16,894 bases of DNA from an archaeon (GTDB lineage: Archaea; B1Sed10-29; JAJSAI01), in contig JAJSAI010000003.1 in assembly GCA_024274695.1 (NCBI GenBank), forward strand, positions 1-16,894. The letters are read 5' to 3'. Positions 4,898-9,822 of the stretch are shown here, in pieces. A program made the translations under genes and the position numbers. The notes under the pieces are model-generated. The model saw only the letters and a list, made by a program, of their open reading frames with translations. It was not told the DNA's origin and searched no databases. Numbering within the stretch: the stretch's first letter is position 1; every line of letters starts with the position of its first letter.

Positions 4898-5281
4898 ATG
4901 AAAGCCCTTTCAATCAGGCAGCCGTGGGCCGACCTGATCGTGGACGGCAGGAAAACGATAGAGACCCGGAAGTGGAACACGGGCTACCGGGGCTGGTTCT
5001 GGGTCCACGCCAGCAGGAGCGTGGACTGGAACGCGTGCAAGAGGTTAGGGATTACTCCAAGTGCTGCTGGAACTGTTATCGGGAAGGCTTTCCTCGAGAG
5101 CGTGAAAAGGTACGAGACAGAAGAGGAGTGGGATGCCGACAGGAGCAGGCACCTTGCTTTGGGAGGAATGCCCAGGAAGCCCATGTACGGGTTTGTTATC
5201 TCCAGGGCAGAAAGAGTTCCTGCTGTCCCTGCCAGGGGCAAGCTTGGCTTCTGGGAATGGGAAATAGGGAGAGAAAATTAG
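4898..5281 (+). CDS. ASCH domain protein (ASC-1 homology)
   Basis: KALSIRQPWADLIVDGRKTIETRKW...YRG..WVHAS and C-terminal PARGKLGFW signature. Confidence 0.92.
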   Translation: MKALSIRQPWADLIVDGRKTIETRKWNTGYRGWFWVHASRSVDWNACKRLGITPSAAGTVIGKAFLESVKRYETEEEWDADRSRHLALGGMPRKPMYGFVISRAERVPAVPARGKLGFWEWEIGREN

Positions 5282-5408
5282 ATTAGAGTAGGCTCTTGTA
5301 CTCTTCCAGCCCTTGCTCTAGTTCAACTTCTTCCTTGGATATTGGTATTATCTCTTTGCCGCCCTTGATCTTGAAGTGCTTGATTGGTTTGTCCTTGTCT
5401 TGCTGCAG

Positions 5409-5430
5409 GAAAAGAGAATAAAAAAAGTGG
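5409..5430 (-). terminator. Oligo-T terminator of the nrdD-nrdG-micro-ORF transcript
   Basis: Minus strand reads CCACTTTTTTTATTCTCTTTTC just after the micro-ORF stop. Confidence 0.45.
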
Positions 5431-5436
5431 AGGATT

Positions 5437-5484
5437 TTATTTGCCGTCGAACTCGTCCAGGGTGGTTTGCCTTTCGTCATCCAT
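5437..5484 (-). CDS. 15-aa micro-peptide MDDERQTTLDEFDGK with a PIP-box-like motif
   Basis: Manual translation. Shine-Dalgarno AGGAGGTG (5500-5493) 8 nt before the ATG, QxxLxxF motif, followed by a T-tract. Confidence 0.6.
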   Translation of the reverse strand: MDDERQTTLDEFDGK

Positions 5485-5511
5485 TCGAGTCACACCTCCT
5501 TCCAATTTTTT

Positions 5512-6183
5512 TCACGCTCTTATTTCGGTGTCAGCAGCTCCTTTGACAATGGTCTTGAACTCGTACAGGGTGTCTATGGAGTGGGGTTTCGCGTGCTTCA
5601 TCTGGTAGCTTGTCTCGGGCCTGAACTGTTGTATGTAGTACTTTCTGGCTCCTCTCACGAGCTCCCTGATTTTCATGAAGTCCTCTTTCCCTAGCTCTGG
5701 GTAGGCGGTGGTCCTGAACTCGTACGCGATCCCTGACTCTCTGATTATTTTCATGGTCTCGAGTATCTTGCTCGTGTCCACGTGCACTTGGGTTATTTCA
5801 TCATACTTTTCCAGGGGGCCTTTCACGTCCATGGCAATGTAGTCCACGACCCCTTCTTCTATTGCTTTTTTCACGACCTCTGGGTTGGACCCGTTCGTGT
5901 CCAGTTTGATCTTGTATCCTATGCTCTTGAGTTTTTTCATGAACGGGATCAGGTCAGGCTGGAGGGTGGGCTCTCCGCCCGTGATGCACACAGCGGTCGC
6001 GATCTTTTTCCTGTGCTCCAGTTCTTCCAGGAGTTCCTGCTCGTCGTAGGCTTGGTTCAGGTTGAACAGGAATGGGTTGTGGCAGTACTTGCACCTGAAG
6101 TTGCATCCCACGGTCGCGATGGTTATCGCGACTTCTCCGGGATAGTCTATAAGGCTTGTCCACTGCACTCCTCCAATCTTCAT
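5512..6183 (-). CDS. nrdG: Anaerobic ribonucleotide reductase activating enzyme (radical SAM)
   Basis: SLIDYPG, GCNFRCKYCHN, ITGGEPTLQ, KLDTNGS, DYIAMDVK, YEFRTT motifs; directly downstream of nrdD. Confidence 0.93.
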   Translation of the reverse strand: MKIGGVQWTSLIDYPGEVAITIATVGCNFRCKYCHNPFLFNLNQAYDEQELLEELEHRKKIATAVCITGGEPTLQPDLIPFMKKLKSIGYKIKLDTNGSNPEVVKKAIEEGVVDYIAMDVKGPLEKYDEITQVHVDTSKILETMKIIRESGIAYEFRTTAYPELGKEDFMKIRELVRGARKYYIQQFRPETSYQMKHAKPHSIDTLYEFKTIVKGAADTEIRA

Positions 6184-6189
6184 CCTGTA

Positions 6190-8316
6190 TCATCCTCCTT
6201 TGTTCGCGGGAATTTCGAACGCTTTCCTCTGCGCGAATTCAGCCTGTTTCCCGTCGTTCCACTGTTGTACTGGTCTTATGTACCCCACGATCCTGGAGTA
6301 CACTTCTGTCCTGGCCCCGCACTCCGGGCACTTGAAGTGTTCTCCTGCGATGTACCCGTGGCTCGGGCACACGCTGAATGTGGGGCTGATCGTGTAGTAC
6401 GGGAGCCTGTAGTTTTCTGCGATCGTCCTCACGAGCTTTTTGGAGGAATCTGGGTTGGGAAGCCTTTCTCCAACGAACACGTGAAGCACTGTTCCTCCAG
6501 TGTACTTGGTCTGCAGTTCGTCCTGCAGTTCCAGGGCCCTGAACAGGTCGCTGGTGGCGTACACTGGGAGCTGGGATGAGTTCGTGTGGTACGGTTCTGC
6601 GCCTTTCTTCCACTCGTTCTCGTTCGCTACTACCAGTTTGGGATAGTATTTCTTGTTCAGTCTGGCGAGCCTGTAGGATGTTCCTTCTGCAGGGGTTGCC
6701 TCGAGGTTGTACATGTTTCCTGTGGCTTCCTGGTAGTCTGCCAGCCTGTCCCTCATGAAGTCAAGTGTCTTTCCAGCGAGTTTTATTGCTTCTTTGTCGG
6801 TCAGGTCTTTTCCTATGAGGTTTAGCATGGCCTCGTTCATGCCCACGAGCCCGATTGTGCTGAAGTGGTTTGACCAGTACTCTCCTGTGGCCTCCTTTAT
6901 CTTCCTCAGGTAGAATTTCGAGTACGGGTACAGTCCTTTCTCGGTGAACCTTTCTATGACCTTCCGTTTTATTTCCAGGGATTTCATGGCAAGGTCCATC
7001 ATGTCCCCTATCATTTCCAGGAACTCGGTCTCGCTCTCGGCAAGGTACCCGTACCTCGGGAGGTTGAGGGTGACGACCCCGATGGATCCTGTGAGGGGGT
7101 CTGCCCCGAACAGGCCTCCCCCTCTTTTTTTGAGCTCTCTCTTGTCAAGCCTTAGTCTGCAGCACATGCTCCTGGCGTCGTCCGGTCTCATGTCAGAATT
7201 AACGAAGTTGGCGAAGTAGGGGATGCCGTACTTTGCGGTCATTTCCCAGAGCGGGTCAAGGTCAGGGTTGTTCCAGTCAAAGTCTTTTGTTATGTTATAA
7301 GTTGGGATGGGGAAGGTGAACGGCCTGCCCTTGGCGTCCCCTTCTATCATGAGTTCTGCGAACGCCTTGTTTATCATGTTCATTTCTTCCTGGTAGTCCC
7401 CGTACGCGGTGTCCAGGAACTTGCCTCCTAGGATTGCGGGAATGTTCTTCAGGTTCTCAGGAGGCTCCAGGTCCATGGTTATGTTGGTGAAGGGAGTCTG
7501 GAATCCCACTCTTGTGGGCACGTTCACGTTGTACAAGAACTCCTGCAGGGCCTGTTTTACCTGCTTGTAGTTCAGGCCGTCTCCCCTGACGAACGGGGCT
7601 AGGAGCGTGTCAAAATTGCTCACGGCCTGGGCGCCTGCTGCTTCTCCTTGCAGGGTGTAAAAGAAGTTGACCAGCTGGCCGAGGGCGCTTCTCAGGTGCT
7701 TGGCGGGCTTGGTTTCAACCTTGCCGGGGACCCCCTTGAACCCTGTTATCAGGAGGTCCTGCAGGTCCCAGCCCACGCAGTAGGCCCCAAGGATGCTTAG
7801 ATCATGAATGTGGAAGTCCCCGGTCTCATGGGCCTTGGCCATTTCCGGGGAGTAAATCTTGTTCAGCCAGTAGTTTTTCACCACGATCCCGGAAATGTGG
7901 AAGTTGAGCCCCTGCAGGGAGAACGTCATGTTGCTGTTTTCTCTGACCCTCCAGTCGTTCTCGTTAATATAGTCGTCTATTATCTTGACGTCCTTGAATA
8001 TCCCCGCGAATTCTCTGATGTTCTGGTGCTGTTTCCGGTAGAGGATGTACGCTTTGGCTAGTAGGGTGTGCCCTGCCTTGACGAGCACGTCTTCCACCAC
8101 GTCCTGGATTTCTTCCACGTCCACTACCCTGCCGGGCGGGTACTTTTGGTTAAGTTCCAGGATCACCTTGTCTGAGAGGGCTTTCGGGTCCTGGTCCCCA
8201 TTAACTGCCTTGACTGCCGCGGCTATCGCGTTGGTTATCCTGTTCTGGTCAAACTCTACTATCTTCCCATCCCTTTTCCGGACAAAATTAACGTGATTCT
8301 CGATCTTTTCTGCCAC
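6190..8316 (-). CDS. nrdD: Class III anaerobic ribonucleoside-triphosphate reductase with N-terminal ATP-cone
   Basis: ATP-cone VRKRDGKIVEFD, HIHDL, SMCCRL finger loop, EATPAEG, Zn-ribbon CPSHG..CPECG, glycyl-radical loop SRIVGY. Start is probably GTG 8316 (6 nt after GGAGGT) rather than 8367; ATG 8322 is an alternative. Confidence 0.96.
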   Translation of the reverse strand: MAEKIENHVNFVRKRDGKIVEFDQNRITNAIAAAVKAVNGDQDPKALSDKVILELNQKYPPGRVVDVEEIQDVVEDVLVKAGHTLLAKAYILYRKQHQNIREFAGIFKDVKIIDDYINENDWRVRENSNMTFSLQGLNFHISGIVVKNYWLNKIYSPEMAKAHETGDFHIHDLSILGAYCVGWDLQDLLITGFKGVPGKVETKPAKHLRSALGQLVNFFYTLQGEAAGAQAVSNFDTLLAPFVRGDGLNYKQVKQALQEFLYNVNVPTRVGFQTPFTNITMDLEPPENLKNIPAILGGKFLDTAYGDYQEEMNMINKAFAELMIEGDAKGRPFTFPIPTYNITKDFDWNNPDLDPLWEMTAKYGIPYFANFVNSDMRPDDARSMCCRLRLDKRELKKRGGGLFGADPLTGSIGVVTLNLPRYGYLAESETEFLEMIGDMMDLAMKSLEIKRKVIERFTEKGLYPYSKFYLRKIKEATGEYWSNHFSTIGLVGMNEAMLNLIGKDLTDKEAIKLAGKTLDFMRDRLADYQEATGNMYNLEATPAEGTSYRLARLNKKYYPKLVVANENEWKKGAEPYHTNSSQLPVYATSDLFRALELQDELQTKYTGGTVLHVFVGERLPNPDSSKKLVRTIAENYRLPYYTISPTFSVCPSHGYIAGEHFKCPECGARTEVYSRIVGYIRPVQQWNDGKQAEFAQRKAFEIPANKGG

Positions 8317-8492
8317 GAGCATACCTCCTATCAGTTCTTCTAACCAGTCTGGCCCCGGCAGGGGCATAATAGAAAGAGACCTTTAGTTCTTATATTCTTC
8401 GGTTAAAACTCCGAACAAAAAAGATTTTGTTGGTTAGAATGCAATAAGTTTGGCTGATTAAGTTCATCACACGCCCTGCCCGCAGGGCCTGG

Positions 8493-8535
8493 GAAAGGTT
8501 TATAAACGCTTATGGGAAAAGATTATAAACCTTTC
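8493..8535. promoter_or_regulatory. Face-to-face BRE-TATA elements forming a 13-bp inverted repeat
   Basis: GAAAGGTTTATAA (8493-8505) and its exact reverse complement TTATAAACCTTTC (8523-8535). Confidence 0.6.
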
Positions 8536-8591
8536 GCTGTAAACCCTTGCTTTTCCCTTGAGAGGATAAAAAATAGGGGGTGTGTCATCGC

Positions 8592-8813
8592 ATGGGGAAC
8601 ATGAAGAGGATAGGAAGGGCTGTTTCTATTTCTGACGGCAAGCTCGTGGTCAAGACCGAAAGACTCGTTAAGATAGGGAGCGAGGTCTTCGACGACGCGG
8701 GAAGGCACATAGGGACAGTAGTGGACTACTTCGGTCCGACCATGGGACCCTACGTGCTCGTGAGCCCCAAGAAGGATCCTGCTCCTCTGGTGGGCCAAGA
8801 ACTGTACGGATGA
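8592..8813 (+). CDS. gar1: H/ACA ribonucleoprotein subunit Gar1
   Basis: IGSEVFD...IGTVVDYFGPTMGPYVLV motif and conserved position upstream of tfb. ATG 8592 follows a GGGGTG Shine-Dalgarno. Confidence 0.85.
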   Translation: MGNMKRIGRAVSISDGKLVVKTERLVKIGSEVFDDAGRHIGTVVDYFGPTMGPYVLVSPKKDPAPLVGQELYG

Positions 8814-8823
8814 AGGTGATTGC

Positions 8824-9822
8824 TTGCCCCGGAAAAAATCGTCCCCGAAAAGCAAGACGAAAACCGCTGCTAAGACCAGGACAGGAAAGAGAGAAAAAGA
8901 GGCAGAACCTGCTCCTGGAAGGCCCGTGTGTCCTGAGTGCGGGAGCACTAGGATAAGAAGGGACTACACCCGGGGAGAAGTGTACTGCGAAAAGTGCGGT
9001 ACCGTGATCGAGGAGAACATCATAGACTCGGGTCCGGAGTGGAGAGCGTTCGACGCTAGCCAGAGAGAAAAGAGGGTCAGGACCGGCGCACCCATAAGAT
9101 ACACTCTTGCTAACAAGGGGCTCTCGACAGAAATAGACATGTACTACAGGGACTTCAGGGGAGTCAAGATAAGCGCAGAGCAGAGAGCTGCAGTAACCAG
9201 GATGAGGAAGTGGCACAAGAGGACCAGCGTCAGCAGCAGCATGGAAAGGAACCTCACAGTGGCCTTGAACGAGCTGGAAAGGATCTCAAGCCTTCTAGGC
9301 CTATCCCCAAACCTCAGGGAAGCGGCAGCGCTCTTGTACCGGAAGGCCGTCTCCAAGGGGCTGATAAGAGGAAGGCTCATAGAATCAGTAGTGGCGGCGG
9401 TCGTGTACATTATATGCAGGCAGTACAACATCCCAAGGACCCTTGACGAGATCGCGGAAGTAAGCGGGATGTCCAAGAAAGAAATAGGGAGAGTCTACCG
9501 GTTCCTGAAGGCTGACCTGGGAATATCCATGCCCTTGACAAACCCAGTCCACTACGTGCCGAGGTTCGCTTCAGAACTAAAGCTGTCCGGGTAAGTGCAG
9601 GAAAAGGCAATACAGATCCTGGAAGAGGCCATAAAGAAGGGCCTGATCTCGGGAAGAGGGCCTACGGGCGTCGCGGCAGCCGCAGTATACATCGCAGGAG
9701 TGATGATGGGAGAGAGGAGAACACAGAAGGAAGTGGCGGACGTGGCGGGAGTTACAGAAGTCACTATCAGGAACAGGTACAGGGAGCTCAAGGAAAAGCT
9801 CGGTTTAGACATTCCAGCATAA
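8824..9822 (+). CDS. tfb: Transcription initiation factor IIB, interrupted by one in-frame TAA at 9592-9594
   Basis: Zn ribbon CPECG..CEKCG, B-reader GPEWRAF, two cyclin repeats and [23 protein letters not shown]. The ORFs 8824-9594 and 9595-9822 are in the same frame: [18 protein letters not shown]. Confidence 0.95.

Follow-up and report, generated by a model that had tools for sequence, protein, structure and literature searches.

A putative 15-codon micro-gene with a PIP-box-like motif at the end of a class III ribonucleotide reductase operon in a genome-reduced archaeon

The 16,894-nucleotide window analysed here is one whole contig (JAJSAI010000003.1; C29) of an 825-kb, 32-contig, 91%-complete genome, G000, whose host is a genome-reduced archaeon of the Micrarchaeota type (DPANN). 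On its minus strand lie nrdD and nrdG, 6 nt apart, which encode a class III (anaerobic) ribonucleotide reductase (RNR) and its activase, and these are followed by a micro open reading frame (micro-ORF) of 15 codons whose product ends in a motif resembling the PCNA-interacting protein (PIP) box (Table 1). A first-pass annotation made from the letters of the window had described a Shine–Dalgarno (SD) sequence, an ATG, this peptide and a T-tract downstream of nrdG, with the micro-ORF in frame with nrdG, and all of these features are present, on the minus strand. The arrangement was compared with that in G001, a genome of the same genus, and in L055, the closest metagenome relative.

Table 1. Positions of the nrdD-nrdG-micro-ORF locus and of overlapping or neighbouring frames in the window.
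Feature	Position	Strand	Evidence or remark
nrdD, class III (anaerobic) ribonucleoside-triphosphate reductase with N-terminal ATP-cone; first cistron	6190..8367	minus	Pfam NRDD 2.6e-197, ATP-cone 8.1e-23
nrdG, radical-SAM activase; second cistron; stop TGA 5514-5512	5512..6183	minus	Pfam Radical_SAM 7.1e-28, Fer4_12
27-nt spacer with A-run and SD sequence AGGAGGTG (5500-5493), 8 nt ahead of the ATG; without T-tract	5485..5511	minus	direct reading
Micro-ORF, 15 codons plus TAA (5439-5437), product MDDERQTTLDEFDGK; 1.8 kDa, net charge -4.5	5437..5484	minus	direct reading
PIP-box-like core Q6-T-T-L9-D-E-F12-D13	5446..5469	minus	regular expression shared with host client C-termini; co-fold contacts
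Pyrimidine-rich tail AATCCTCCAC-T7-ATTCTCTTTTCC; T7 = 5426-5420	5408..5436	minus	direct reading
Neighbouring start-less open frame ending ...KPIKHFKIKGGKEIIPISKEEVELEQGLEEYKSLL-stop, not part of the micro-gene	5281..5408	minus	last 57 nt (5281-5337) 81% identical in G001
65-residue ORF, +1 frame over the micro-ORF	5283..5480	minus	rejected as a gene
141-residue ORF	8523-8948	minus	no Pfam match
TFIIB/TFB gene	8824-9594	plus	

Read 3' of the nrdG stop, the spacer consists of A6 (5511-5506), TTGGA, the SD sequence and a further 8 nt, and the ATG of the micro-ORF occupies 5484-5482. The SD sequence is unusually strong, its 6-mer core standing ahead of 18 of the 550 long ORFs (background 0.34%). 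The frame runs on from nrdG with no second stop before that of the micro-ORF itself, reading ...EIRA-stop-KKLEGGVTRMDDERQTTLDEFDGK-stop. In all three loci (G000, G001 and L055) no T-rich tract separates nrdG from the micro-ORF and one follows the micro-ORF, the C-then-T-rich tracts of G001 and L055 also including TTTATTC, and it is likely that the pyrimidine-rich tail of the window serves as an archaeal oligo-T terminator of an nrdD-nrdG-micro-ORF transcript. A scan for promoters and terminators of the bacterial type gave no useful information, as it returned 7 terminator-like sites where 5.7 are expected and placed none at the micro-ORF. An A-run lies directly at the nrdG stop, or within 6 nt of it, in each of the three loci, its opposite strand being a T-run that faces the convergent gene; in the window this convergent gene encodes an ASCH-domain protein and ends at 5281.

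Conservation of the micro-ORF was followed through nrdG loci sampled from 60 related genomes (30 loci kept, the window's own included) and from the best 80 of 548 confirmed metagenome loci. In G001, whose NrdG is 91% identical, nrdG stops at TAA and is followed by a 21-nt spacer with GAGGTG and then by MDEDRQSTLDEFDGK and TAA. The micro-ORFs of the two genomes differ at 7 of 48 nucleotides, and six of these differences fall at third codon positions; four changes are synonymous and the others are swaps of D for E, E for D and T for S. Third positions have changed in 6 of 16 cases and first and second positions together in 1 of 32 (Fisher p = 0.0036), while nrdG itself differs between the pair at 12, 11 and 71 of 224 first, second and third positions. 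Since 38 of 79 four-fold sites in nrdG differ (48%), unconstrained DNA should by now be far more scrambled and show no codon periodicity. The L055 locus, with an NrdG that is 60% identical and an NrdD that is 72% identical over residues 422-719, repeats the same order: the 3' end of nrdD, nrdG, TAA, a 30-nt spacer with GGAGG, ATG, MSDDGPRQTTIDDAPQKSIDDYD, TGA and a C-then-T-rich tract. Its peptide of 23 residues is built of two tandem Q-x-[ST]-I-D-D units, the second of which is followed by Y-D.

The distribution of this element is narrow. The first-pass annotation had suggested scanning the region downstream of nrdG in relatives for SD-led micro-ORFs with a QxxLxxF end, and 3 of the 104 loci for which 200 nt or more downstream of nrdG were available proved positive: an ATG-initiated micro-ORF starts within 60 nt of the stop in 28, five of these have an SD sequence, and just three, namely G000, G001 and L055, combine an SD sequence with a PIP-like end. 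No SD-led PIP-like micro-ORF occurs in the 101 more distant nrdG loci. A separate scan of nrdG downstream regions took in 110 loci. The three positive loci are the three closest, the next NrdG proteins being at most 57% identical, and no closer relatives were found in the GTDB species representatives, the JGI metagenomes, IMG/VR or a 5.8-billion-protein collection; the 10 NrdG loci of IMG/VR, compared by NrdG only, are all at most 46% identical. Pattern scans over the order (18 genomes), the class (31) and the phylum (31) found the motif as a micro-ORF in G000 and G001 only, the hits in G028 and G005 not having been inspected. Matches in G008 and G015 lie inside an MCM-like 686-residue frame or a 739-residue frame, and the remaining matches are those in G028 (like sequences) and one in G005 (SQFTIEEF). 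A PDB sequence search with the 22-residue frame returned no homologue of the peptide at E up to 10, and tblastn of the 15-mer and of the downstream remnant against the genome itself revealed no paralogue.

Within G000 alone the micro-ORF lies inside chance expectation. Among the 5875 ATG-initiated ORFs of 10-40 residues in this genome, an SD-like site accompanies 290, and Q..[LIVM]..[FYW] falls within the last 14 residues of 34, so that about 1.7 with both would be expected by chance; two were found, the nrdG micro-ORF and an internal Met within a helicase gene. It is more than chance because it is conserved in relatives with a substitution pattern of the coding type. Judged by these substitutions, the 15-residue product is under purifying selection in the lineage that holds G000, G001 and L055, and the micro-ORF is very probably a real, selected coding micro-gene.

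Standard gene calling misses this conserved 15-codon frame and reports the overlapping 65-residue ORF instead, which is not conserved. We rejected the latter as a gene: it belongs to no Pfam family, has no homologue, and its frame is lost in G001. Although a public protein collection lists it as this contig's own product, the call is probably spurious and conceals the real gene. Elsewhere in the window, the 141-residue ORF overlaps the start of the TFIIB/TFB gene, so that an error probably lies in one of these calls or in the start assigned to TFB.

The C-terminal motif of the micro-peptide can be set against the PCNA clients of the same organism. The regular expression Q..[LIVM]..[FYW] matches within the last 20 residues of 18 of the 1838 G000 ORFs of at least 100 residues and at the very end of 8, seven of which are Fen1 (QSSLSRWF), Nre (QPRLTKWLS), PolB (QTGLGKWMK), RNase HII (QKKLSDYC), NucS (QAKLEKYF), the DP2 subunit of PolD (QKSLADFV) and a DEAD/ResIII helicase (QKRIGDFA). 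The eighth tail, QKTLSHFL, closes a 415-residue protein. As these eight are expected PCNA clients, the motif together with its terminal position can be taken as the PIP signature of this organism. The 415-residue protein itself (G000:C21:26816-28063, plus strand, L141) ends in GGPQKTLSHFL and has no Pfam match at E up to 1e-5; by its tail it is a candidate PCNA client. The same expression matches nowhere in the entire NrdD protein.

The micro-peptides share most of this signature. Gln stands at PIP position 1 (Q6 in G000 and G001; Q8 and Q16 in L055), an aliphatic residue at position 4 (L9 in G000 and G001; I11 and I19 in L055) and an aromatic residue at position 7 (F12 in G000 and G001; Y22 in the second L055 copy). 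The motif ends two residues ahead of the stop in G000 and G001 and directly at it in L055, which agrees with the C-terminal position of the host tails, and with the solved structures of archaeal PIP motifs, all of which lie at the extreme end of their proteins (PMC6881253). The PQKSIDDYD of L055 resembles the host tails PQKKLSDYC, PQKTLSHFL and PQKRIGDFA. The first-pass annotation was right in remarking that the second aromatic residue is absent: Asp takes its place, and with Asp at position 8 the micro-peptide is PIP-like and not a canonical PIP box.

A structural model of the peptide with its cognate clamp, a check that the same annotation had proposed, is also consistent with clamp binding, though as a model only. 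One PCNA gene was found in the G000 genome (G000:C21, L143:1501-2247), and its 248-residue product, with a 100-row homologue alignment, was co-folded with the 15-mer. The interaction prediction score from aligned errors (ipSAE) was 0.83, 0.83 and 0.82, against 0.10 for the best of three controls; contact agreement between runs was at least 88% and the predicted local distance difference test score of the partner was at least 75. In calibration, the mark applied was reached by 58 of 80 solved complexes and by 2 of 110 mismatched pairs, a set that included no chain shorter than 30 residues. Predicted contacts join peptide residues 3-14 to PCNA residues 40, 43-47, 124-128, 225-226 and 241-248, a surface that, going by solved complexes, we take to be the pocket under the interdomain connecting loop together with the C-terminal tail. 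Since many PIP-PCNA complexes have been solved, this success may reflect likeness to them.

Of the two options that the first-pass annotation had left side by side, the free-standing peptide is the better supported: the SD sequence and ATG are kept in all three loci, selection acts in frame, the motif is like that of the host clients, and the co-fold passed its controls. The other option, a read-through or ancestral tail of NrdG, is not borne out by the differing stops, the unconserved spacer peptides and the lack of a fused NrdG among the best relatives listed. On that option, stop suppression would add KKLEGGVTR-MDDERQTTLDEFDGK to NrdG and tether the activase to PCNA. It draws on the fact that the micro-ORF lies in the nrdG frame without a stop in the spacer in all three loci (27, 21 and 30 nt) and that the spacer indel between G000 and G001 is 6 nt; but such a coincidence of frame would arise by chance in about 1 of 9 cases and so carries little weight. 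No leaky context is common to the stops (TGA in G000, TAA in G001 and L055), the spacer peptides KKLEGGVTR, KKRCETK and PPKKIRRNEK are not conserved, and it is the SD sequence and ATG that are kept, at proper spacing. NrdG moreover ends at the ...[IV]R[GA]x position usual for its family, and no fused NrdG was seen among the 120 best relatives listed (221-285 residues; 223 in its own cluster and 225 in L055). We consider a read-through or formerly fused tail very improbable. An NrdG with a C-terminal extension in a single continuous frame was also sought, and a stop intervenes in 3 of 3 loci. A role of the site as an RNA element receives no support from folding, which is no better than that of shuffles (z 0.02, 0.59 and 1.17), or from Rfam, where the only match was a microRNA family at E 0.55, below its threshold. 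Adjacency of a short peptide gene to a radical-SAM gene could also suggest the precursor of a ribosomally synthesized and post-translationally modified peptide, with the neighbouring enzyme as its maturase. That enzyme, however, is a 223-residue activase of the NrdG type with Radical_SAM and Fer4_12 only, encoded beside its NrdD substrate; Pfam detects no SPASM or peptide-recognition domain in it, the peptide has no Cys and no leader/core organisation, and 101 other nrdG loci are without such a peptide. This origin of the peptide is barely plausible.

The first-pass annotation had also named, as a fallback, the 5' stub of a truncated gene. On this account the micro-ORF would be a non-functional leftover of a decayed gene after nrdG, for example of a thioredoxin-fold redoxin with an N-terminal L-x-D-F-x-G-K, kept by chance or for an RNA or terminator role. 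It is consistent with the start-less, partly conserved frame downstream (5283-5408), which has decayed further in G001, where a stop interrupts it and 55 nt are deleted. It also gains from the fact that the occurrence in a single genome lies within chance expectation, and from a GTDB-wide scan for Q-x-T-L-[DE]-[DE]-F-[DE]-G-K that returned 24 stretches. Of these, 23 are bacterial, 20 of them embedded in frames of 62-1326 codons and the other 3 in frames that span 22-31 codons, and the one bacterial frame tested is an AhpC-TSA/Redoxin protein with the motif inside its domain; the single archaeal stretch (L039) is identical to part of the G001 contig and is therefore not a new instance. Against a stub stands the TAA after Gly-Lys, which is common to G000 and G001, so that any truncation predates their split; the later changes are almost only at third positions, at the significance given above, while the four-fold sites of nrdG have come to differ by nearly half. 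L055 keeps a relative of the peptide, without G-K and with a duplicated motif, and neither the read-through translations (X at the stop; G000 and G001) nor the remnant matches a Pfam family at E up to 10; the remnant is also without a homologue in the 5.8-billion-protein collection. In more distant relatives the genes after nrdG, assigned by eye, are presumably HIT-, LigT- and aminotransferase-like and not redoxins. A stub is possible as the origin of the micro-gene and fails for its present state because the stub is under purifying selection; as a full explanation we regard it as improbable. A search for thioredoxin-fold sequence after the motif, as expected of an AhpC-TSA/redoxin stub, found none, and the read-through belongs to no Pfam family.

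Some further observations concern these sequences and the convergent junction. The pattern Q-x-T-[LF]-[DE]-[DE]-F-[DE]-G-K occurs in 23 bacterial stretches (L031-L054), eight of which (L036, L038, L042-L045, L051 and L054) carry the form Q-[FG]-TLEDFEGK in frames of 213-309 codons. The 57-nt segment shared with G001 (5281-5337 in the window; 16491-16547 in L146) adjoins the stop of the convergent gene and has changed without a coding pattern, with a stop inside it in G001; it is 81% identical between the two genomes although the four-fold sites of nrdG differ by 48%. Upstream of it G000 has 55 more nt than G001. G001 has an extra gene of 261 residues (L146 16542-17327, minus strand) between this segment and the ASCH gene; it is missing in G000, so that some 785 nt have been gained or lost where the two genes converge.

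Our results suggest how a free-standing peptide of this kind might act. nrdD, nrdG and the micro-gene would form one operon, with the micro-gene as third and last cistron, co-transcribed with the other two and terminated at the T-tract. The product would be a peptide that is attached to no larger protein and closes in a PIP-box-like short linear motif, Q-x-[ST]-[LI]-D-[DE]-[FY]-D; it may dock in the PIP pocket of the single PCNA, the site for the Fen1, PolB, PolD, RNase HII, NucS and Nre tails. As it carries no enzyme and no second aromatic residue and is strongly acidic, the peptide could be a weak, concentration-dependent competitor for clamp sites. Clamp occupancy might be tied to the programme of deoxynucleoside triphosphate (dNTP) synthesis because the dose of the peptide would follow expression of the class III RNR operon, and either a brake on the clamp or a release could result. 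The parts of this proposal differ in strength. That PCNA is the partner, probably bound weakly, is plausible and supported by the model, with the odds evenly balanced; a selected micro-gene together with PCNA binding falls slightly short of that balance, and a regulatory coupling of the peptide and clamp to RNR is a tentative suggestion, rather unlikely as matters stand.

Several points weigh against this proposal. The micro-gene is known from DNA sequence alone, and its three known loci amount to two independent lineages. The first motif copy of L055 has Ala where F or Y is expected, and position 8 is Asp in all three peptides, the residues there in the eight host tails being F, L, M, C, F, V, L and A. 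The net charge of the micro-peptides is -4.5 to -5.5, as compared with +0.8 to +4.8 for the last 15 residues of the eight client tails, and PCNA is itself acidic (isoelectric point 4.71, net charge -12.4). The co-fold score expresses the confidence of a model and is not a measurement, and the basis for the coupling to RNR is membership of the operon. An acidic peptide and an acidic PCNA together argue for weak binding or for another, basic partner. A real, selected micro-protein whose acidic tail with an aromatic residue near its end (LDEFD, IDDYD) binds a basic pocket elsewhere, a case comparable with the C-terminal tails of class I R2 subunits or of bacterial SSB, would draw on the same evidence of selection, on the same charge and Asp at position 8, and on the location within the RNR operon. 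Such a pocket might be offered by NrdD, by NrdG, by the genome's second RNR, or by the surface of a polymerase or of a protein of the SSB/RPA type, and the genome does contain a 696-codon frame that matches Ribonuc_red_lgC. On the other side, all three peptides retain the Q-x-x-[LI]-x-x-[FY] spacing of the host PIP tails, the PCNA co-fold passed its controls, and a search of the 91%-complete genome yielded no R2 subunit, which leaves a mimic of the R2 tail without an obvious docking partner and hence unlikely. A partner other than PCNA is, on the whole, unlikely, if not to the degree of the origins weighed above. As to the second RNR itself (G000:C24:21806-23212, minus strand, L144/L145), for which no R2 was found, it is probably of class II, so that the 825-kb genome would keep two RNR classes.

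Should the peptide indeed act as an adaptor or brake between RNR and PCNA, archaea would have in it their first PIP motif encoded as a gene of its own and their first link between the clamp and RNR. PIP motifs are known as appendages of enzymes, and a gene that is motif only, kept by selection within a dNTP operon, would be a very small regulatory module of the clamp. What is new here is a PIP motif as its own gene inside an RNR operon, with a narrow known distribution; the PIP motif itself is already known. The first-pass annotation had not recognised such a link between RNR and the replisome as described. The link is not wholly undescribed, as fission-yeast Spd1 attests (PMC10939359). For archaea and for class III RNR, our literature search, which left supplements outside its scope, returned nothing that connects RNR with PCNA, nor any mention of a small ORF downstream of nrdG.

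Among known systems, the micro-peptide can be compared with the archaeal C-terminal PIP boxes of Fen1, PolB, PolD, RNase HII, NucS and other replication and repair enzymes. It shares with them the terminal motif with its Q-x-x-[LI]-x-x-[FY] spacing and the predicted PCNA pocket, and differs in being a motif without an enzyme, with Asp at position 8 and with acidic, not basic, flanks. The sequence TL[DE][DE]F[DE]GK also recurs within bacterial AhpC-TSA/redoxin proteins, but it is internal there to a thioredoxin fold of about 120 residues, whereas no fold follows it here and L055 is without G-K. The C-terminal peptides of class I RNR R2 subunits bind R1 and are inhibitory as free peptides. Like them, the micro-peptide is short and acidic, has T-L-D and a near-terminal Phe and is encoded with RNR; the operon here, however, is of class III, which has no R2, and no R2 gene was found in the genome. 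Another small archaeal protein to be considered is TK0808 of Thermococcus kodakarensis, which was reportedly later named TIP, an inhibitor of PCNA, and is said to be without a canonical PIP box. It is a protein of about 8 kDa that co-purifies with PCNA1 (PMC2962436). Compared by description, it is about four times larger than the micro-peptide and lies outside RNR operons.

The closest parallel in logic is Spd1 of Schizosaccharomyces pombe, a eukaryotic and much longer inhibitor of class I RNR that a ubiquitin ligase removes; Sml1, Hug1 and Dif1 of budding yeast are Spd1-like systems. Spd1 is described as small and disordered, as an inhibitor of RNR, and as binding PCNA through two weak motifs in tandem, within a system based on competition (PMC10939359). 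The micro-peptide is likewise a small product tied to RNR that carries a PIP-like motif, in two tandem copies in L055. By analogy, it could be a minimal archaeal counterpart of the Spd1-PCNA-RNR circuit, a 15-residue adaptor or brake that gates PCNA clients by the capacity for dNTP synthesis or that bridges NrdD/NrdG to the clamp for dNTPs at the fork, a reading we hold to be distinctly unlikely in this full form. The parallel is one of logic and not of ancestry, and the link to class III RNR consists here in operon membership only. If it holds, the micro-gene would offer a testable case of coordination between precursor supply and replication in a genome-reduced archaeon, and an independent parallel to fission-yeast Spd1.

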